Positions 1 to 9,942 of a stretch of DNA of 64,000 bases are shown one piece after another (the first letter of the stretch is position 1; every line of letters starts with the position of its first letter). The position numbers were made by a program, and so were the translations under genes. The notes below the pieces were generated by a model that did not search any database, was not told the DNA's origin, and saw only the letters and a program-made list of their open reading frames with translations. The stretch lies in the IMG/VR virus record IMGVR_UViG_3300005546_000001, positions 1-64,000 of that record; one strand, 5' to 3'. The DNA comes from a virus (taxonomy: Duplodnaviria > Caudoviricetes).

Positions 1-734
1 GGAGTTGTCGGACTCGCAAGCTCGCTGGCAGGGATCAGCGCAGGCTTCACAGCGTCTTTCTGTGCCTTTGTTGCGCCTTCCGGGAGTCCCGCGATAGCTG
101 CTTGCCATTCCGCGCGGAATTTCGCGAGACGTTTCTCAGCGGCCATGACTTGTTCGGACGTTGCGATGTCCTGGCTGATAGCCAAAGCCAAAGCAGAGCG
201 TTTCGCTGCCACCGTGTGACCCTCACCTGGTTTGAATTCGCCCACTACCTTTGACTGCAAGTTGTGATAGTGAACGGACGCATCCAAAGCCACACATGTC
301 ACGATTGACTGCACAAACGAAGTGCAAGTTGTGAAAGCGTATGCTTGCTCGATCATATCGCCCATGTTCCCGTTGAAACCCCTCAGAGCTCGCTTGTATT
401 CCTTCATGGAGCGAATTCCAAGATCAATCAACGGCTGGGCCAGCCGGACAACTGCGCCGACCAGTTTGTTGCGCTTTGTCTCGCCCGTTTTCGTCGCCGC
501 CGCTTTGTAGACGGTTTTCTTGACATCGGGCGATAGCCAGAATGTTAGTGCGTCGAATCCGTTCTGGGTTTTCTGACTGGCAAACTCGTTGCCGAACAGA
601 GTGAACAGAATCAAAACAATTTTGTCGATTGTCTCAATCCCGATTTGTCGAAGTTGCTCGAAATGATTGACGTTGCTCGCGGGAGTCGCGTCAACCGATA
701 CTGCCGCTTTCGCGGCTGTTGCTCTAGTTGCCAT
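1..734 (-). CDS. hypothetical protein, partial (runs off window start; missing from ORF track)
   Basis: ATG at 734 with GAGG RBS; hand translation MATRATAAKAAVSVDATPASNV... stays open to position 1. Confidence 0.8.
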   Translation of the reverse strand, partial: MATRATAAKAAVSVDATPASNVNHFEQLRQIGIETIDKIVLILFTLFGNEFASQKTQNGFDALTFWLSPDVKKTVYKAAATKTGETKRNKLVGAVVRLAQPLIDLGIRSMKEYKRALRGFNGNMGDMIEQAYAFTTCTSFVQSIVTCVALDASVHYHNLQSKVVGEFKPGEGHTVAAKRSALALAISQDIATSEQVMAAEKRLAKFRAEWQAAIAGLPEGATKAQKDAVKPALIPASELASPTT

Positions 735-802
735 GATTAGTATCCTCGCTTTCAATTCTGAGCGTGCTATCACTAGCGCCGCCGAGCCCTTCCAGGCACT
801 AG

Positions 803-836
803 AAAAGGCGAGTCACCCGTTAGGATAACTCGCCCG
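803..836 (-). terminator. probable intrinsic terminator
   Basis: minus strand GGGCGAGTTATCC-TAAC-GGGTGACTCGCC followed by TTTT. Confidence 0.55.
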
Positions 837-1105
837 ACTAAATTAGTTGTGCAGGTTCGTACCGAACTATTTCAACAAGCTCGCAATGAGCAACACAACG
901 AGAATGATGAGCCATGTCAGTCCGGCTGACCCGCTTGCCGGCCGCGGACGCATTCTCCGCGCCCGTGCCGCCCTGGCGGCCCGTAGTCCTCGCGCTTGAT
1001 TGTACGTCATGAGAAAAACCTCCGTTTCTTACCTTGTCACAACGCGAATCAACGTACCACATGCCAAGCAAATAAGCCTGTATTGATACGTGATCCGATT
1101 GCTAA

Positions 1106-1270
1106 TTAGAACTTCTTTGCGTCCAAACTCGAAACTCTTTCGGTTTGATCCGCATTCTTTGCATTGTACCATGATTCGTTTACTCCACAGTCAACACACA
1201 CTCCGCGTTGAAAGTCGTGTTTGTAATTCCATGTTGGTCCGGTTTTGCTATCTGTTCTGCATTCATGCAT
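1106..1270 (-). CDS. small Cys/His-containing hypothetical protein
   Basis: AAGGAGA RBS before MHECRTD...; H..CVDCG motif. Confidence 0.55.
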   Translation of the reverse strand: MHECRTDSKTGPTWNYKHDFQRGVCVDCGVNESWYNAKNADQTERVSSLDAKKF

Positions 1271-1357
1271 GATTATTCTCCCTTGCGTCCGTAGACGCAC
1301 CTATCCCGCTGCTAGTAAACTACAAGATCGAAACACAGACCTTTACCTAGCAGGTAG

Positions 1358-2332
1358 TTATTCAGAGCCCTTCGGTTGCACATACCGGCCCGTAGCGATA
1401 ACACAGTACGGGCCAGCGATTACATTCCCACGTGATGCTAATATAGGCGATTTTTCAACCCGTTTCGGATGCGATAGTGTTGCGCCCTGATTAAGAGCGT
1501 TAGCTAGTGCATTAAGATTGATACAGAAAGAGTTAAAGTCATTGAATAACTCTGTGTCGGTTATAGACGCTAGAACACGATTAGCATTCTTCTGGCACTC
1601 CAGAACCTTCTGTGAGCTTTTTGAACCCTTTTCTACGTATTCGTGCGTCTTTGGAGGCTTTCTAACGACTTTCTTCGCTTTTGAGCCACGTTTGACGACA
1701 CTCAACTCGTAGTACGCTGCTCCCTTTACCCTACGCTCTCGATCATCCCGCAGTGTTCCGTCGCCAGGTTGATGCCAGTGAGACCGCCTATCCCCTGCAC
1801 GCTTCGCAGCATCAGCGTGGAATACCGCAGCACTGTTGTCCGTGCGCTCTATGCTGTACCCAGCGCATCCACATATAGGATGTCCATGTTCGGTAGGAGT
1901 ACCACACATCGGACACTGGCCGTCTACGCTCACACGTCCTCGATAGTCGCCACGTGCAGGTGGGAGTTGAGTAACCAGCCTATCCGCATTAGCCCAATAG
2001 TGTGTGTGTAGAGAGCGCCCACACACGCACTTAGAAGGCAACAGCACAGCATTATCATACACTTTGCCACATATACAGCGATGCCCCTGCGCACGCTCCA
2101 TGCGCTCAACTTCTCGTGATATGTCACGCTGTACACGCTCTATCACTCGCCCCTTACTCCTGTTGATATGTATGCCAGGAGAGCGGCCCGCTATGTAGGA
2201 CAGCGTGAGCACACCACTATCCCGTACCACGAGTGCGGTGTGTGCTACCCGCACTCTACGCGGTGACTGCACTCTGCGCTGTGATGATAGTTTGGACATG
2301 TGACGCCACCAATGAAGCACGTGTGATACCAA
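1358..2332 (-). CDS. Cys-rich (Zn-ribbon) hypothetical protein, true start uncertain
   Basis: 324-aa ORF with CICG, CVCG, CPMCG...CGC motifs; N-terminus lies in low-complexity DNA. Confidence 0.5.
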   Translation of the reverse strand: MVSHVLHWWRHMSKLSSQRRVQSPRRVRVAHTALVVRDSGVLTLSYIAGRSPGIHINRSKGRVIERVQRDISREVERMERAQGHRCICGKVYDNAVLLPSKCVCGRSLHTHYWANADRLVTQLPPARGDYRGRVSVDGQCPMCGTPTEHGHPICGCAGYSIERTDNSAAVFHADAAKRAGDRRSHWHQPGDGTLRDDRERRVKGAAYYELSVVKRGSKAKKVVRKPPKTHEYVEKGSKSSQKVLECQKNANRVLASITDTELFNDFNSFCINLNALANALNQGATLSHPKRVEKSPILASRGNVIAGPYCVIATGRYVQPKGSE

Positions 2333-2752
2333 GCATACTAATTACTGTGCTATCAACAATAACCTAATGGTATAACTGTTGCTTACTTTCCAATAATCCA
2401 TTTATTCGGATTCGACAATAATCGAATTACCCAATAGAATGTAGTAATAAGGCTACATCCATAATTTCGGTCAAATAACCAAATAATCGTATGCCACAAC
2501 ATGGTACGTGTTTTGCTTGTATCCGCCCCGTGGAGACATGCCACCAAACGTTGATATGATTAGACTTGCAAAAGTGGTACTTTTCATCACAATATCATAT
2601 TTATTCGCTTCTATTCGTATATCGTTTTCGATAGTATGCAATATCTATACCACTACTCTGCACACATATGCAGCATCAATGCATGCAGTGTGCCAAAAGC
2701 GTATTGTTCTATCTAAACGACTTAGTGTTTGATGTATGCACGTAGTGTGCCA
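2316..2752. promoter_or_regulatory. cluster of six sigma54 (-24/-12)-like boxes on both strands
   Basis: TGGYAYN-N4-NTGCW at 2316-2332(-), 2368-2383(+), 2502-2517(+), 2637-2652(-), 2680-2696(-), 2737-2752(-). Confidence 0.6.
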
Positions 2753-2995
2753 CACATAGGTACGAAAATGCTCGAAAACGAGAATCGAGTGTAACTCTAA
2801 TGGATAGAACAGTTATGGTTATGATTTTCGTAGATTTTCGTCGAAGATTCATTCGAAAATGTTGTGGAGATTTTTGCGATTGTGGGGATGGACACTCTCC
2901 CTGAAAGTAAATTCTCTATATTTTCTAGGGTTTTTGAATTTGATAGGTTATTTTAACAGAATTCTAGTTTTCTATAAAAATTTTTCATGCTGTTT

Positions 2996-3202
2996 TTAGA
3001 GGTTTTTGGCTTTTTCTAAATACTTAATTCTACTCTTTTTATTCTTTTCTAGTCTTTTGCGGCGGTTCTCTAATTTTTTACAATTCCCGCAAGTAGCATA
3101 CTTTTTATGTTTAGATATTTGTATTTCCGAAGGGAACCATTTTGGTATTATACCACATAAAGCTTCTTTTGGATATTCTGGATGTTTTATATGTGTCTTC
3201 AT
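2996..3202 (-). CDS. small basic Zn-binding hypothetical protein
   Basis: H...ALCG...TCGNC motif. Confidence 0.6.
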   Translation of the reverse strand: MKTHIKHPEYPKEALCGIIPKWFPSEIQISKHKKYATCGNCKKLENRRKRLEKNKKSRIKYLEKAKNL

Positions 3203-3313
3203 GAAATTATTAACGACTTTACATTATGTGAAGGACATTCAGTACAATACCAATTATCAACCAAATAATTAAGAGAATTATAATTGCAAAAATAAATGCT
3301 CTAAACAAATCAT

Positions 3314-3874
3314 TCATACTCTTAGTTCCTCCCATCTCACGCAGCCTTCCTGAATTTTATTCCGGACTTGTCTTTCCCTTGTACTCAGCGCCGATTGGCC
3401 GGTTTTAACTTCCATAAAAATTACTTCCTCCAAATCTCCGTCTGATAAACCGCTGAAAATCAATAGATCGACCGGGCTTCCTAAGAAACGGCAGTCTTTT
3501 GGATTGTACGGAAAGTCAGCAAAGAAAGGAATTAAATGTTCTGTTATCTTGCCTTTAGTTACCGCCGTGGATCTTGAAATAGCATCAGCTCGAATTCTAG
3601 CTTCTTCCTGCTGTTTCCATTCTACGAGACTTACCTGAGCATTATTCAGCGCCCAAGTCCGCTCCATTTCCCGAACTGTCATTAATTCGTTGTTTTTCCA
3701 TACTTTAAGGGCAGCTTCAAAATCTTCTGGGCTCTTCCAGTCACTGTGTTTCTCTAGTTGAGTTTCTAGCTCTTTTACTCTTAATCTGACTCCAATGTAA
3801 GCTAAAATAAAGCAAACTAGTGCTATAACTAGCAGGAATATAAGAATTGTTAATCCCACGTCAGGAAGCTCCAA
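3314..3874 (-). CDS. Holliday-junction-resolvase-like PD-(D/E)xK nuclease with N-terminal TM helix
   Basis: GKITEHLIPF..FPYNPKDCRFLGSPVDLLIF..GL...FMEVKTG. Confidence 0.8.
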   Translation of the reverse strand: MELPDVGLTILIFLLVIALVCFILAYIGVRLRVKELETQLEKHSDWKSPEDFEAALKVWKNNELMTVREMERTWALNNAQVSLVEWKQQEEARIRADAISRSTAVTKGKITEHLIPFFADFPYNPKDCRFLGSPVDLLIFSGLSDGDLEEVIFMEVKTGQSALSTRERQVRNKIQEGCVRWEELRV

Positions 3875-3972
3875 AACCCAAACCCTATGGCGCCAATGAC
3901 GATCACGATAAATGTAATTATCGAAACCGGGACGACTAAAATAGTAGCGACTATTAATTTAAATGTTCTCAT
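3850..3972 (-). CDS. 40-aa hydrophobic membrane peptide
   Basis: hand translation MRTFKLIVATILVVPVSIITFIVIVIGAIGFGFWSFLTWD; ATGA overlap with upstream gene. Confidence 0.5.
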   Translation of the reverse strand: MRTFKLIVATILVVPVSIITFIVIVIGAIGFGFWSFLTWD

Positions 3973-4190
3973 TCTATTCCTAATACCTTTCTTGCTTTGT
4001 CATAATATGGGTGCCAAAAACAAAGTTCATTAGTTTTCTCATGAATTCCAGATGTAGGAGCACCTTGTCTTTTGCAGGCGCCACATTCATTTAATTCATC
4101 CATTGGCAAAAGCTCTGAAATAATATCCTTCAGTTCCTCAATTTCATTCAGTGCTTTGGTTAGTTGTTCTTCTAGCCATTCTGGAGTCAT
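3969..4190 (-). CDS. hypothetical protein
   Basis: ORF coupled to neighbours. Confidence 0.6.
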   Translation of the reverse strand: MTPEWLEEQLTKALNEIEELKDIISELLPMDELNECGACKRQGAPTSGIHEKTNELCFWHPYYDKARKVLGIE

Positions 4191-5083
4191 TTAAGAAGTC
4201 CCCTATTTCTTCCATTAGCCTGAATCGTCTTCACGGCGATCTCTAGCGCATCCAACCTTGAAGTGATACTCTGCATCGTTTCTTCTGAGAAAACGTCTGT
4301 ACGGGGCTCTTGACGCGATTGCGGGGTATTTGAGCGATGCCCCTTAAATGCTTTTTCAGTTTCCTGCTCGACTAATTTAGTCGATGGGATTGATGTGGAA
4401 GCGCCAAGTTTAATAGCGAAATGGTCTTTTGGCATTTTCGCAATTTCATTTTCTTCCCATTTCTTAACATCTGAAAAAGAATTAAATGAAGATTCAGCAA
4501 CCCCAGCGGACACTGAGGGCTCAAACTGAACCTTAGCCCCACTTGCAGCGGCCAATGGAATATAAAGTTTATTTGTTTCTTGTAAAAGGCCGCCCAACAG
4601 ATATGCGCAATCGTTGCAAACAAACCCATTAAAAAATCCAAGAGTTAAAAATACCCCATCTTTTCCTTGTTTTTTGCATTCTTCACACTGTCTAATATCC
4701 GAGCGATCATCTCGCTTTACTATTCGTATTTTCATATTTTTTCCTAAAATTTTTGGTTTTTTGTCTTTTTTAGATAGATTAACTCTTACATAATCTAAAT
4801 TCGGATGATTCTGCATTATGTAAATCATTGATTTAAAATCATTTTTCCAATAGTTCCATGATGATTTATATACTAAGGATTCACCACTATCATAAATCCA
4901 ATATAATTCTGAAGCGTCCTTTAACAGCCATGTTCCACCATAATATTTGAATCGTAAATTATTGATATTATATAGTTTAATTCTAAAAAATAGTGACCAT
5001 TGATCAATTAAAAAGCCTAAGTTTCCGGTGTGAGCATAATGAAGCAATTCGTGTAATCGACTTAATATCTTCATATTTTTCAT
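4187..5083 (-). CDS. hypothetical protein with CxxC..CxxC; probably starts at the second Met (5074)
   Basis: 298-aa ORF; first ATG overlaps the -10 box. Confidence 0.6.
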   Translation of the reverse strand: MKNMKILSRLHELLHYAHTGNLGFLIDQWSLFFRIKLYNINNLRFKYYGGTWLLKDASELYWIYDSGESLVYKSSWNYWKNDFKSMIYIMQNHPNLDYVRVNLSKKDKKPKILGKNMKIRIVKRDDRSDIRQCEECKKQGKDGVFLTLGFFNGFVCNDCAYLLGGLLQETNKLYIPLAAASGAKVQFEPSVSAGVAESSFNSFSDVKKWEENEIAKMPKDHFAIKLGASTSIPSTKLVEQETEKAFKGHRSNTPQSRQEPRTDVFSEETMQSITSRLDALEIAVKTIQANGRNRGLLK

Positions 5084-5147
5084 TCTAGCAGAGTTTTATG
5101 GCGCTGTCAAGATAGGACTTGACACATAGCCAAAAAATTGTTAAACT
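5082..5147. promoter_or_regulatory. back-to-back sigma70 promoters
   Basis: minus: TTGACA(5110-5105)-17-TAGAAT(5087-5082); plus: TTGACA(5119-5124)-17-TAAACT(5142-5147). Confidence 0.8.
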
Positions 5148-5203
5148 ACGTTACGGAGATTTTTAGAAAATCTCAAATCTAAGAAAACAAAGGTTTTAAA
5201 TAA

Positions 5204-5677
5204 ATGCAGACTGAATTAGTCGTCGGGAGTAATGAAGAAATAGTCCAGTTTGATTCTAGATGGTTAAAAAATACATACCCGGTATTGATTAGTTTTGATG
5301 GTGATAAATATAAATCCGTTGATGAAGCTTTTTATGCTGCGCAAACTCCAATTAGAAATGAACGGAAATATCTGAAAGAATTAGGATATTGCAATAAACT
5401 AACAATTCGCGGAGATTGGGAAGACGTAAAGATTGAAATTATGGAGCAATTTCTTATTCAGAAGTTTACCAAACCGCGATTCAAACGTTGGTTAATCTTT
5501 ACTAAAGATTTGCCAATAGAATTTAGAAATAAAGAATGTGAACATTTTTGGGGAAAATGTTTTTGTTACACTTGTAAAGGTATTGGAGAAAATTATTTAG
5601 GTGAAATGATTATGAATATTCGATACTCATTTCAAGAAGATATAGAAAACAAAGGAATTGTTGTTTATGCCAAATAA
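5204..5677 (+). CDS. NADAR (YbiA-like) family protein
   Basis: Y.SV..AF.A, RGDWEDVKIEIM, QKF, FWG..C...GENYLG..IM.IR. Confidence 0.8.
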   Translation: MQTELVVGSNEEIVQFDSRWLKNTYPVLISFDGDKYKSVDEAFYAAQTPIRNERKYLKELGYCNKLTIRGDWEDVKIEIMEQFLIQKFTKPRFKRWLIFTKDLPIEFRNKECEHFWGKCFCYTCKGIGENYLGEMIMNIRYSFQEDIENKGIVVYAK

Positions 5678-5948
5678 CCCAATAACAAAAGCACCATTTC
5701 CGCATTGCGACCAGCACGTACTACATGCGCCACAAAAATGTGAATTCTGTGATAAGTATCCAGAACTTCAAGAAGAGCGAACAAAAACAAATACGAATTT
5801 TACTGGAGAACAGGATTTAACCAAAAATCCTTGCCCCGCTGAAAAAGCCAGAAGTTTGAAAGATATTAATAAGTGGTCCGGTAATCGACCCGAGGGATAT
5901 GTACGAACTCTGACGTTTGCTAGAAAGGGCAGTAAGTATGTCCAGTAA
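5667..5948 (+). CDS. Cys/His-rich hypothetical protein
   Basis: FPHCDQHVLHAP..CEFCD. Confidence 0.6.
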   Translation: MPNNPITKAPFPHCDQHVLHAPQKCEFCDKYPELQEERTKTNTNFTGEQDLTKNPCPAEKARSLKDINKWSGNRPEGYVRTLTFARKGSKYVQ

Positions 5949-6696
5949 ACCTGCGCCAAATATAAGTTCTTTAGATCTTTTGCGGTCCCTTTATAACGAA
6001 CTTTCGGCAAATTTTGAATTTCATTATAAGACAATAATCCGAATTTCTTGGCGCGACGGCAGCCCGGATACTGAAGAATTTATTATTCATCGTGATCCAG
6101 AAATTCCAGAATCTAAATTAGACAGAAAAAATTATCGAGGCTGTAAGAATGTAGTGCCTTTGAGAACCTTCCAAGAATTTACATCTGGTTCCTTATATAG
6201 CCCAGTCAGCGCACTCGGTTATCGGAACTTCTCATATGAGTGGGCGCTTGCTTTTGTGATTGATTGTAATCTAGCTCGACAAAAAACTGGAAATATTGAC
6301 GATGCACTCGTTCACTATATTTCTGATGTAGCTGCCGGAGATGCGATTCGCAAACGAAGAATAATCCTTGAAGAGAATTCCACCAAACGGCGCCAATCTA
6401 AACCGAATTCCGAAGATCTCGATGAAAGATATTTACAGAAAATGAAGAATCTTTCCGTTGAAGAAAGAAAAGAAATCAAGGATTTCATAAAAAAGAACAA
6501 GAAAAAACTTGATTCCGATGATAGTTTTCAGCACGAAGAGTACAGACCAAAGATTTTTAGGAACTCCGTAAGTATTTCTGCTGGTCCGGACGACCTTGAC
6601 GATGAAAATTTCTTGAGTTGGTTAGTTGAAAAAGAAAATAATAGTAGAAAAACATCTAAAAAACCTTCATTAGAAACAATTGATGGTGATTTTTAG
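5938..6696 (+). CDS. hypothetical protein
   Basis: long ORF overlapping upstream stop. Confidence 0.65.
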   Translation: MSSKPAPNISSLDLLRSLYNELSANFEFHYKTIIRISWRDGSPDTEEFIIHRDPEIPESKLDRKNYRGCKNVVPLRTFQEFTSGSLYSPVSALGYRNFSYEWALAFVIDCNLARQKTGNIDDALVHYISDVAAGDAIRKRRIILEENSTKRRQSKPNSEDLDERYLQKMKNLSVEERKEIKDFIKKNKKKLDSDDSFQHEEYRPKIFRNSVSISAGPDDLDDENFLSWLVEKENNSRKTSKKPSLETIDGDF

Positions 6697-6785
6697 TTAA
6701 AATTCTGTAATTATATAAAAATAAAAGACTTTTTAGTACAAATCTTGTAAGTTATTGTATTTTTATGTAACTTATTGAATCTTTT

Positions 6786-6800
6786 GGGGCATACTTGAAC
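6786..6800 (+). promoter_or_regulatory. putative phage late promoter motif GGGGCATACTTGAAC (copy 1)
   Basis: identical 15-mer at 37561, variant at 46415; precedes the packaging operon. Confidence 0.55.
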
Positions 6801-6818
6801 ATTAGTTTCAGGAAAATT

Positions 6819-6971
6819 ATGAGAATAGATACCAAGCCGGTTGATACACCCCAAAAAGTAACTACTGATATCAAGCAAGAACTAAAAGAGTTGGCGGCGG
6901 AAAAGAAAAATCCAAAACTGGAAACTTCGTTCAGCGCCCTTCTTGCTAGAAAGTCAGCGCAGGTTTTTTAA
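6819..6971 (+). CDS. 50-aa hypothetical protein
   Basis: AGGA RBS; MRIDTKPVDTPQKV...KSAQVF. Confidence 0.55.
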   Translation: MRIDTKPVDTPQKVTTDIKQELKELAAEKKNPKLETSFSALLARKSAQVF

Positions 6972-6973
6972 CA

Positions 6974-7687
6974 GTGTTCTCCTCCGACGATGGGGCATTC
7001 GCCCAAGAAACTCTGGAGGAGGGTGTTCAAACAGAACTTCCTTCCGACTCTCCTCCAGAGAAACCTAAAAGAAATCGAAAAGCAAAGAGTTTAACAAAAA
7101 CGGAAGGCCGTCCCAGAGTTCTGAGTTTTGCTGAACGAGTCGAGGCTTGGCACGATTATACCCTCGGCGCAAATATTTATGAACTGGCCATTAAATTCTT
7201 AACGCAGCCTAATGAAATTCAAGCTGGAATTGATCTAGTTGCAAAAGAACTTGGCTATCCACATAATCACATCGATCCAGAACTAGAACGATTTAGAATT
7301 GTTGAAGCTTCTGATCGAATGAAGTCGGTGCAGATCCAACTTCTTCAAAAAGCTAATCAAACTTTAAAAGAAATAGAGCAACAGCAATCTCGGCTAAAAG
7401 AAGAACGAGAAGATATACATATTGGTCGAGATACTTCTAAAGATGAATTAAAGCTTCTTGATGCAATAATGAAGGCTGAAGCTGAACTTGAACTCCGCCA
7501 TCAGTCAGAAGTTAAATCAATTGTTTCTTTAATGGCCGAATATCGTGCTACTAATTTAGTCATCGCCGATCTTACAGGAATTAAGCGTACCAAGCCAGTT
7601 CGAAAGCCAAAACAACTCCCAACTGCGGAAGAAGCACTTGAAAATCTCTCGGATGAACAGCTCATAGAACTTACAAAAGTAGGATAA
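6974..7687 (+). CDS. probable terminase small subunit
   Basis: HTH-like N-part, coiled coil, LENLSDEQL tail; position upstream of TerL. Confidence 0.5.
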   Translation: MFSSDDGAFAQETLEEGVQTELPSDSPPEKPKRNRKAKSLTKTEGRPRVLSFAERVEAWHDYTLGANIYELAIKFLTQPNEIQAGIDLVAKELGYPHNHIDPELERFRIVEASDRMKSVQIQLLQKANQTLKEIEQQQSRLKEEREDIHIGRDTSKDELKLLDAIMKAEAELELRHQSEVKSIVSLMAEYRATNLVIADLTGIKRTKPVRKPKQLPTAEEALENLSDEQLIELTKVG

Positions 7688-7692
7688 TTTTT

Positions 7693-7908
7693 ATGGATTC
7701 ACAGTCAGTAAAGATGCCCGGATGGTTGCCGGCATCGGAATTAAAGAATCAGCACTCTATGATTGGAACACTAGCATTTTGGCGTGGATTTAAAAATGAA
7801 CCCCGCAGTTCAAAAAAGTCTGTTCCGCAGAATCTTTCTGCCACGCTTTCTATATTAAAGAATATAAATATAAAAATGCAAGAAATGGTGGATAGTTATG
7901 GCAATTAG
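7693..7908 (+). CDS. hypothetical protein
   Basis: AGGA RBS, in operon. Confidence 0.5.
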   Translation: MDSQSVKMPGWLPASELKNQHSMIGTLAFWRGFKNEPRSSKKSVPQNLSATLSILKNINIKMQEMVDSYGN

Positions 7909-8848
7909 ACCACCAAGCACAAAGCAAAAAGAAGCAAAAGCAGCGCAGGAAAAGAAAGCAATATCCGAAGCCGCAAAGATTGTTCTTGCGCGGCGCGATC
8001 TTGTAGCATTTGCAGAAACAGTTCTTCAGGATGAAAATGGGCAGTTAATTAAAGCGGCACCTATTCATCAAAGTTGGTGGGACCATCTCCAGTATTGCTG
8101 GATGATAAAAAAAGCTAGTCTCAACCTCGCGCCCTACGCACACGGAAAATCAGCTTGGATGGCCCTTGCGCTACCTTTGTGGCTTTTAGGACAGAATCCA
8201 AATTTTAGAATCATGATGGTTTCTTCCGCCGAAGACATCGCAGCTAAGAGATTGCAAAAGATTTCTGAGTATATACAAAGAAGTAAAGAATATCATAAAG
8301 TTTTTCCTTGGGTACAATTTGAGAACTCAAAGCAGAATAATGCCCACGCTTTGAATGTAGTCAGAACTGGCCAGCGCGGTGGAATGACAGGATCTATCGA
8401 CCATTCGATGTCAGCCTACGGTTATACATCTAGTGAAGGCCAAGGCTCACGTTGCGATGTACTGATTTTCGACGACGTTTGTGATGAAAAGAATTCTTGC
8501 ATTAGCCCCGCAACGCGGAAGAATCTTCTTGGACTTGTAACTACACAATGGCTTCCGAGAGCCGCGCGGCCCACTCAGGATGAGCAGCCACTTAAGGCGC
8601 GGGATGGCAAGATAATTTCCAAAAAATCCATTATTTGCGTAATCGGCACCCGGTTTCACGAGGAGGATCTGTACGGCTTCATGATGGACAGCCCTAGTGC
8701 GTATTGTTCAATGATTCAAGGGGTTTCAGATGACTATAGCCATCTTGATTGCACCATCATCGGAGCGCTCAAAAATCCACCCCACCCGGTAATCACGAAA
8801 TGGCGCGAGTATGTGCCGAAGCCGGTTGAACAGCAAGAAGCTGCATAA
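7898..8848 (+). CDS. terL: terminase large subunit, ATPase half
   Basis: Walker A APYAHGKS, Walker B VLIFDD, coupling motif IGTRFHEEDL. Confidence 0.9.
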   Translation: MAIRPPSTKQKEAKAAQEKKAISEAAKIVLARRDLVAFAETVLQDENGQLIKAAPIHQSWWDHLQYCWMIKKASLNLAPYAHGKSAWMALALPLWLLGQNPNFRIMMVSSAEDIAAKRLQKISEYIQRSKEYHKVFPWVQFENSKQNNAHALNVVRTGQRGGMTGSIDHSMSAYGYTSSEGQGSRCDVLIFDDVCDEKNSCISPATRKNLLGLVTTQWLPRAARPTQDEQPLKARDGKIISKKSIICVIGTRFHEEDLYGFMMDSPSAYCSMIQGVSDDYSHLDCTIIGALKNPPHPVITKWREYVPKPVEQQEAA

Positions 8849-9942
8849 TGTCAGATGAAAGACAAATCCTCGCTCCTGTGCGATTCAAGCAACCCGGATG
8901 GCCATCATTCTGGGGGCCAGAAGCTTTAAAAGAACAAGAAGCATTAATTCGTTCTCGCGCATTTGAAAGAGGTTTTAGACAGAAACCACAATCTGATGAA
9001 GATTTAATCTTCCCACATCTTGTCGAAGACATTGTTTTTGAAAAAGGTATTATAGTTAAGTACGGAAAGAATTGGCGTCATCTTTCTGATCCGGAACATA
9101 AAGACTATGATGAACCCGATAATAATGGAGTTCATCACGACCCGTTTTATGTTTCACCTGAATGGCCGCGTTATATAGGATGTGACGTTTCGGGCAAAGG
9201 CCGACGCGGAACTGTTATTTTCACGCTAGCTATTTCTCCGCAAGCTGTTCGACACGTTTTGGATATTCGGATCGGAAGTTGGGGCGCGGGGCCAGAGTTT
9301 CATAGACAACTACAAGCCGTTAATTCAAATATACTCCTCTGCCCGCGCCGAATATTTGTAGAAAATAATGCTATCCAAGAAGCCGTAGTTGATAATCTGA
9401 AAGAAATTGGCGGAGAGTTCGGAAATAAAGTTTTTCCGTTTAGAACTGGAAATCAAAAGATGGACCCCGAAATCGGTCTTCCGGGGATCGATATGCAGTA
9501 CAAACTTGGACGTTGGCGAATTGGTGTTCCTCACAAAAAAAATTCTCCAGCATTTCCCGACAAAAAGAATCCAACGCTTTGTTTATGTGGAATTTGTACG
9601 CTGATACGAGATGCATCTACATTTACCGCTGATGATCTGAAAGAAACTCCGGATAGCATTGCCGCGCAATTTATTGCCAAAGAAGCAAGTCGTCAAGGAG
9701 AAAGATATTCAGAAACATCAGCAAACGTTGTTCAAATTTCTCAAAAAGATCTTCAGGCACAGATTCATCAAATGATACATCCTGAGAAATCACGATCTTT
9801 AAGATTGCCGGTTGTAACTAATTCAATCAGAGGAAAGAATTCAGATAAGTCGTGGCCATTTGACGCTCAGTTTAAGGGGCCGCATCCCGATCCAAAGATA
9901 AGACATGATGTTGGAACTTGTGCTGCATGTGATGGAGCTTAA
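8848..9942 (+). CDS. terL: terminase large subunit, nuclease half
   Basis: FWGPEAL..F..Q.P linker, RNase H-like YIGCD, VENNAIQ, PDSIAA; TAATG overlap. Confidence 0.85.
   Translation: MSDERQILAPVRFKQPGWPSFWGPEALKEQEALIRSRAFERGFRQKPQSDEDLIFPHLVEDIVFEKGIIVKYGKNWRHLSDPEHKDYDEPDNNGVHHDPFYVSPEWPRYIGCDVSGKGRRGTVIFTLAISPQAVRHVLDIRIGSWGAGPEFHRQLQAVNSNILLCPRRIFVENNAIQEAVVDNLKEIGGEFGNKVFPFRTGNQKMDPEIGLPGIDMQYKLGRWRIGVPHKKNSPAFPDKKNPTLCLCGICTLIRDASTFTADDLKETPDSIAAQFIAKEASRQGERYSETSANVVQISQKDLQAQIHQMIHPEKSRSLRLPVVTNSIRGKNSDKSWPFDAQFKGPHPDPKIRHDVGTCAACDGA

Follow-up and report, generated by a model that had tools for sequence, protein, structure and literature searches.

Transcription by the sigma-54 form of RNA polymerase is strictly activator-gated, and it is almost unstudied in phages. 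At bacterial enhancer-dependent promoters of the glnAp2, pspA and Klebsiella nifH type, a GG at -24 and a GC at -12 stand at a fixed spacing, and the activator usually binds upstream. This -24/-12 signature is a bipartite, asymmetric motif with a variable spacer, the two blocks of which lie about one helical turn apart, and it resembles neither the palindrome of a dimeric binder nor the sites of sigma-70-family factors. Here we describe a cluster of six sites with the same GG and GC elements at a fixed spacing in a 64,000-nt stretch of DNA (the window), positions 1 to 64,000 of a 130,977-bp phage record in IMG/VR (IMGVR_UViG_3300005546_000001; Caudoviricetes; record rated complete). In contrast to the bacterial promoters, the six sites are packed into 440 bp, lie on both strands and belong to a phage, with no activator gene nearby.

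For a phage that depends on the sigma-54 of its host for some of its transcription, as the motif suggests for the phage studied here, there is a precedent in Pseudomonas phage YuA, which carries a sigma-54-like promoter (P015) with a start mapped by ONT-cappable-seq and a promoter trap (PMC10914365). That promoter is attributed to Ceyssens 2008, as cited in PMC10914365. It was the one documented phage sigma-54-like promoter that we found in the literature, where we found no description of arrays. Whereas YuA is a cultured phage with a single promoter, the present locus is a dense bidirectional array in an uncultured phage known from sequence alone. Sigma-54 promoters themselves are already known, and what is new here is the occurrence of putative sigma-54-type promoters as such an array in a phage. 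A second comparison is with the silent intragenic and antisense sigma-54 sites of E. coli, which likewise occur in both orientations, many of them far removed from gene starts and with long leaders, and are bound without being transcribed under standard conditions (Bonocora 2015; PMC4591121). Those sites are scattered singly inside genes, whereas the six described here are clustered in one non-coding gap.

The pattern TGGYAY-N6-TGCW matches six times within 437 bp (2316-2752), eight times in the window and, in a scan of the whole 130,977-bp genome, 11 times. An annotation made earlier from the letters of the window (the original prediction) had reported six correctly spaced sites in about 440 bp, and all six are indeed present, each in its place and on its strand. 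It had put the frequency of the motif at about one match per 65,000 positions for uniform composition, which is arithmetically right, and had held that far less than one site would be expected in the region, which simulations bear out. In particular, when the 470-bp region itself was simulated 20,000 times with a first-order Markov model, the mean was 0.02 matches and the maximum 2, and three or more were never obtained. The enrichment also holds against a composition-matched shuffle, the eight matches in the window comparing with a mean of 0.93 and a maximum of 4 in 100 dinucleotide shuffles. The five genomic matches outside the cluster are intragenic or antisense and background-like. When the spacer was varied from 0 to 13 nt in TGGYAY-Nx-TGCW, a spacer of 6 gave six matches and every other length gave 0 or 1; that only N6 is enriched argues that the signal is more than an excess of the words TGGYAY and TGCW. 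(TGGYAY alone occurs nine times in the region against 0.9 expected, three of the nine having no -12 partner.) At all six sites TGCWT follows the spacer and the GG and the GC are exactly ten bases apart; the motif is non-palindromic and bipartite, with variable spacer letters and exact spacing. The cluster of six sites is thus confirmed and lies far beyond chance.

The TGGTAT and TGGTAC variants found among the sites are as in nif promoters. Sites in E. coli verified by chromatin immunoprecipitation (ChIP) include GGTAT, GGTAC, GTGCA and ATGCA forms, and about 22 of the 85 bound motifs contain GGT by our count from the same table (Table 2, PMC4591121). Judged by their letters, the variants in the phage fall inside the range of sites that are occupied in vivo in E. 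coli.

Taking the C of the GC as position -12, as for the E. coli ChIP sites (PMC4591121), we predicted a start for each site. Four of the six sites point leftward. The most upstream of these is site 6 (TGGCACACTACGTGCA; 2737-2752, minus strand), with a predicted start at 2726; it is followed by site 5 (TGGCACACTGCATGCA; 2680-2695, minus strand), with a predicted start at 2669, and by site 4 (TGGTATAGATATTGCA; 2637-2652, minus strand), which would start at 2626 towards ORF A, the first gene downstream of the leftward sites (ORF, open reading frame; 313 amino acids (aa); 1358-2299, minus strand). The fourth leftward site, site 1 (TGGTATCACACGTGCT; 2316-2331, minus strand), has a predicted start at 2305. 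All four are co-oriented with a downstream operon that is bounded by a terminator, and their predicted starts lie 6 to 427 nt ahead of it, the tandem trio of sites 4 to 6 giving ORF A leaders of 327-427 nt. Site 2 (TGGTATAACTGTTGCT; 2368-2383, plus strand; predicted start 2394) and site 3 (TGGTACGTGTTTTGCT; 2502-2517, plus strand; predicted start 2528) point rightward. The original prediction had the plus-strand sites facing no gene, but the predicted start of site 3 lies 10 nt before the ATG of a possible hydrophobic ORF of 64 aa (2538-2732, plus strand), which has a weak, closely spaced GGAG and is doubtful as a real gene.

Two pairs of sites are alike beyond the core motif. Sites 5 and 6, which are 57 bp apart, share 17 nt as a direct repeat. 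The convergent sites 2 and 4 are the arms of a 29-nt inverted repeat. Because the flanks of either pair are unrelated past about 6 nt, these are not plain duplications. The folding of the leader and of the rightward transcript is unremarkable (z-scores of -1.7 and -1.3, respectively).

The cluster fills a non-coding gap of about 700 bp (2300-2995) that has no coding signal in any frame and that marks the boundary between AT-rich DNA on its right and a GC-rich block on its left. The original prediction had placed the cluster at an early/late junction, which is not where it lies: the gap is within the leftward arm of the genome, and the two arms meet at 5083-5204.

Directly upstream of the leftward trio lies a second family of repeats, which we regard as a candidate enhancer. 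One arm (2762-2779) reads ACGAAAAT-gc-TCGAAAAC, two copies 10 bp apart with TCGAAAAC at 2772, and the other (2824-2860) reads ATTTTCGT-ag-ATTTTCGT in the same 10-bp phase, followed by an inverted copy, TCGAAAAT, at 2853. The two arms form an inverted repeat across 46 bp. All three copies of ACGAAAAT in the window lie within 2762-2841, and TCGAAAAC and TCGAAAAT are two further variants of the family. Note that an 8-mer present three times within 100 bp arose in about 1% of local simulations and is found at five other places in the genome. The repeats stand about 35 to 215 bp upstream of the three predicted leftward starts, in keeping with the upstream activator sites of bacterial enhancer-dependent promoters; the usual distance range of sigma-54 enhancer sites covers such positions.

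The phage appears to bring little of the required machinery itself. We found no Pfam match in it to the sigma-54 DNA-binding domain (PF04552; PF00309 and PF04963 were not searched), none to the activator families PF00158 and PF14532, and none to sigma-70 region 2 or a T7-type polymerase. Its single large AAA+ protein is fused to a prohead protease and is of the FtsH/Cdc48 type. With no match to a sigma factor, polymerase or activator of its own, the phage would depend on the host enzyme for transcription and on a host ATPase for activation. Canonical sigma-70 promoters at 5082-5147 (TTGACA-17-TAGAAT and TTGACA-17-TAAACT, on both strands and each preceded by TG) indicate that host-type promoters are used elsewhere in the genome.

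We infer from the motif, its spacing and the surrounding gene layout that the six sites would be bound by the RNA polymerase of the host carrying sigma-54 and would serve mainly as activator-dependent promoters. In this reading the leftward starts at 2726, 2669 and 2626, in tandem, together with that at 2305, would drive a self-contained GC-rich accessory unit that would comprise ORF A, small zinc-ribbon ORFs and a 47-aa membrane peptide and end at a terminator (806-835). The phased ACGAAAAT repeats (2762-2860) would be docking sites for an enhancer-binding ATPase of the host that loops to the promoters. The rightward starts at 2394 and 2528 would give convergent antisense transcription over the long leader; they might also yield a small hydrophobic peptide, and so may form a second layer of control. 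The accessory unit would in this way be tied to a host signal instead of to the sigma-70-driven programme of the phage. We give roughly even credence to this combination, in which several host sigma-54 promoters, served by an enhancer and a host activator, drive a small accessory operon of high GC content while the convergent sites contribute antisense control.

Several observations weigh against it. None of the six sites is a perfect TGGCAC-N5-TTGCW (TGGCAC is present in two and TTGC in three, and both occur together in none); at four sites the -24 block reads TGGTAY, and the T at -15 is absent from three. Sites 2 and 3 face away from the operon. For site 1, the predicted start comes after the GGTGG ribosome-binding site of ORF A, so that a leader of 6 nt would remain ahead of the ATG. 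As for an activator, the array region differs from bacterial enhancer-dependent promoters in having no known activator or IHF site: no IHF, NtrC or NifA-type site was found there, and the ACGAAAAT repeats match no known activator site. The enhancer-like repeat pair had no match in IMG/VR, and the repeats were not found as a regulon in 800 bacterial genomes (400 from each of the phyla of genomes G002 and G005). The host is a further difficulty, since homologues of a sugar dehydratase of the phage, at 50-56% identity, are spread across many phyla and point to no single host phylum, so that the presence of rpoN and of an activator is not given. (About half of the 80 loci kept for this protein were from Verrucomicrobiota, which is not decisive for the host.) Moreover, relatives with terminases at about 50% identity (L011, L012 and L014) and a more distant 87-kb relative (L010/G001; 32-36%) lack the cluster in the DNA compared, in which they share only structural genes with the phage.

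The repeats were at background level in five genomes and then in the 400 plus 400 genomes of the two phyla, two genomes excepted. In these two, from the Verrucomicrobiota sample (G385 and G403; loci L218-L232), a dispersed repeat about 150 nt long is present 14 and 20 times; it contains ACGAAAATTCACGAAAA, is often at contig ends and has no adjacent sigma-54 box. It looks like a small mobile repeat unrelated to the phage.

Arrays of this kind are found in other uncultured phages. When IMG/VR was scanned for pairs of TGGCAC-N5-TTGCW sites in the same orientation and 10-40 nt apart, the matches comprised at least 120 contigs with tandem consensus sigma-54 boxes (loci L098-L217), where about one such pair would be expected by chance, an estimate that assumes about 6e10 bases. 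Among the first 80 loci tallied, 42 had clusters with sites in both orientations, and as many as 13 sites fell within 500 bp. Clusters of at least three sites were present at 87 of the 120 fetched loci, and 54% of their sites lay outside ORFs as compared to a background of 23%. (One locus, L136, has 28 sites in 6.5 kb, and at L109, L115 and L122 the orientation alternates strictly.) Like the present cluster, these arrays are dense, often bidirectional, enriched outside ORFs and without an activator gene that we could find; no proteins were common to the present locus and the L098-L217 contigs. The locus described here differs from them in that its sites are weaker and rich in TGGTAY, that it has phased octamer repeats of its own and that its GC-rich payload is clearly bounded. 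It is a weaker instance than some others, the sites being non-consensus, and its layout is unusually clear.

The original prediction had proposed that the cluster is a sponge or roadblock for sigma-54 holoenzyme. The part of this claim that holds is that the sites are real and have sigma-54 geometry. As a polymerase trap or insulator, the array would keep holoenzyme in stable, rarely firing closed complexes, and it would either soak up host sigma-54 as the phage DNA multiplies or, with six complexes in place, shield the GC-rich block from read-through of the early leftward promoter (5082-5110). The two orientations of the sites would suit such a device, as would their predicted footprints, which do not overlap, so that all six could be occupied together; the absence of a terminator between the upstream genes and the array, the lack of an encoded activator in the PF00158 and PF14532 searches and the bidirectional arrays in 42 of 80 other phage contigs are likewise in keeping with it, and most E. 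coli sigma-54 sites are bound yet silent (PMC4591121). In E. coli, however, intragenic sites with bound sigma-54 showed no roadblock effect (PMC4591121). A sink should moreover prefer high-affinity consensus sites, from which four of the six deviate, and it needs neither a 4:2 bias in orientation towards an operon nor enhancer-like repeats. To our knowledge, there is no evidence of sigma-54 titration for any phage. We favour promoters over a trap because of this 4:2 bias towards a terminator-bounded unit, the rightly placed enhancer-like repeats and the non-coding surroundings, and we consider a trap or insulator unlikely. We think it distinctly unlikely, a shade more so, that the array is chiefly not a promoter set but an anti-host docking platform, with room for up to six sigma-54 holoenzymes in 450 bp, which would drain a small host pool as the phage genome multiplies or insulate the GC-rich block from early read-through. 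Were it one, sigma-54-dependent stress responses would be blunted, and a DNA-level anti-host device would be common to many uncultured phages.

It is also conceivable, if rather unlikely, that another protein of the phage or the host reads the motif and that its likeness to sigma-54 sites is a coincidence, as might be the case for origin iterons or a regulatory nucleoprotein complex, which would also take in the ACGAAAAT repeats and the neighbouring, very AT-rich DNA. The adjoining segment (2900-3300) is 28% GC and among the most AT-rich stretches of the genome, two repeat families lie side by side, three of the nine TGGYAY words have no -12 partner, and small basic proteins with Cys pairs are encoded on both sides of the gap. 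A motif that is bipartite, asymmetric, variable in its spacer and exactly spaced nevertheless suits a sigma factor better than a dimeric binder, and the consensus that it matches was defined independently and is no arbitrary word; for an origin in particular, no DnaA boxes were found, and the helicase and polymerase genes are at least 50 kb from the cluster. That the sites reflect chance, local composition or a recent local duplication and have no function is hardly credible: the likeness within the pairs 5/6 and 2/4 would fit duplication, but the flanks of these pairs are unrelated, a single spacing is enriched, and none of the 20,000 local simulations reached three matches. Taken together, the interpretation offered by the original prediction is partly supported.

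Its suggestion that the cluster might mark a genome end or packaging site is not supported, as neither fits the layout of the genome. The record ends in a 120-bp direct terminal repeat, and an ORF that runs leftward from 773 continues over position 1, across this repeat, into the opposite end of the record, which argues that assembly cut a circular or permuted genome at this point and that the ends are not physical termini. The terminase genes (7898-9942) are about 5 kb away from the cluster. They belong to a plus-strand arm, from 5204 to about 54.6 kb, that holds a split T4-type terminase, portal, capsid and tail genes and 27 tRNA genes (ARAGORN). The minus-strand arm is the rest of the genome (about 42% GC overall) and includes sugar-modification genes, a DnaB-like helicase, a family A polymerase, Rad52 and ThiF. 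At 5083-5204, where the two arms diverge, the near-consensus sigma-70 promoters described above face both ways; the 8-mer AATCTTTA is present near these promoters in three copies within 100 bp. Another 8-mer, CCCACGCA, has ten copies in about 100 bp within a His-rich ORF of 296 aa (genome positions about 126869-127759, minus strand). The sole perfect TGGCAC-N5-TTGCA of the genome (43125-43140, plus strand) lies in the sense direction within a plus-strand gene of 625 aa, about 900 bp ahead of the next gene.

Neither a megablast search with positions 1-6000 nor a tblastn search with the portal gave a match to cultured phages, and in IMG/VR we found no relatives of ORF A, of the ORF A alignment or of the resolvase-like gene near the gap. 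Closer relatives, on Logan or JGI contigs, have terminases with 72-86% identity (P0003, P0004 and P0006), and a further one (P0012) is on a 121-kb JGI contig.

To the right of the gap, an AT-rich block (29-36% GC) contains four leftward genes, including one for a resolvase-like nuclease (PF10107). The last gene of this block (2996-3202, minus strand), at the stop codon of which the gap starts, encodes a very basic protein of 68 aa with a Cys pair and a Lys/Arg-rich C-terminal helix, possibly a DNA binder for the local repeats. The block to the left of the gap is 50-57% GC as compared to about 42% for the genome. Its first gene, ORF A, encodes a protein with many Cys, His and Arg residues. When 1.84 billion representatives were searched exhaustively with HMMER, one homologue was obtained, on a single Logan contig, with 65% identity over residues 1-264 and long invariant stretches containing paired Cys and His (CxC...CxC and CxxC...CxC); conservation at this level argues that ORF A is a real gene. 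It matches no model in Pfam, PHROGs, NCBIfam or PADLOC, subsets of which gave no function for its neighbours either, and it folds poorly both in the ESM Atlas model and with AlphaFold2 (pLDDT 33.5). Downstream of ORF A, two small ORFs with CxxC pairs overlap within 1029-1270 on the minus strand; one runs from 1270 to 1106 (54 aa, with a GGAG site) and the other, zinc-ribbon-like, from 1172 to 1029 (47 aa). ORF D (47 aa; 867-1010, minus strand) combines a strong GGAGG site with an Arg-rich N-terminus and a membrane helix at the C-terminus, and its translation looks like a small tail-anchored membrane peptide. The leftward unit is closed by a strong intrinsic terminator (806-835, minus strand) with a 13-pair stem, seven pairs of which are G-C, and a T-run.

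Units of this form recall the morons of lambdoid phages, which are promoter-gene-terminator units of deviant composition that have sigma-70 promoters and are carried by temperate phages. The unit described here likewise would have its own promoters, has a terminator, a composition apart from that of its genome and cargo without an assigned function. It differs in that its predicted promoters are of the sigma-54 type and that a search of the phage with Pfam PF00589 found no tyrosine-type integrase (serine recombinases lay outside this search). Since no repeats flank the GC-rich block either, nothing points to an attachment site or to an inserted element. (Positions 1-2300 of the window and 129467-130977 of the genome make up a block of about 3.8 kb with 46-58% GC, which contains the ORF A operon, a 260-aa ORF across the record ends and a 1.4-kb stretch without an ORF of at least 70 aa. 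Rfam gave no match in 1-8000 and one sub-threshold chance match in 118000-130977.)

The locus is a compact test piece of about 2 kb in which promoters, a candidate enhancer, a payload and a terminator are found together. Mapping of binding and of transcription starts on any of the arrays in the at least 120 contigs would tell whether phages widely use the sigma-54 enzyme or trap it. If the six sites work as promoters, the accessory operon would be controlled by a signalling ATPase of the host, and the phage would have a way to sense the state of its host.

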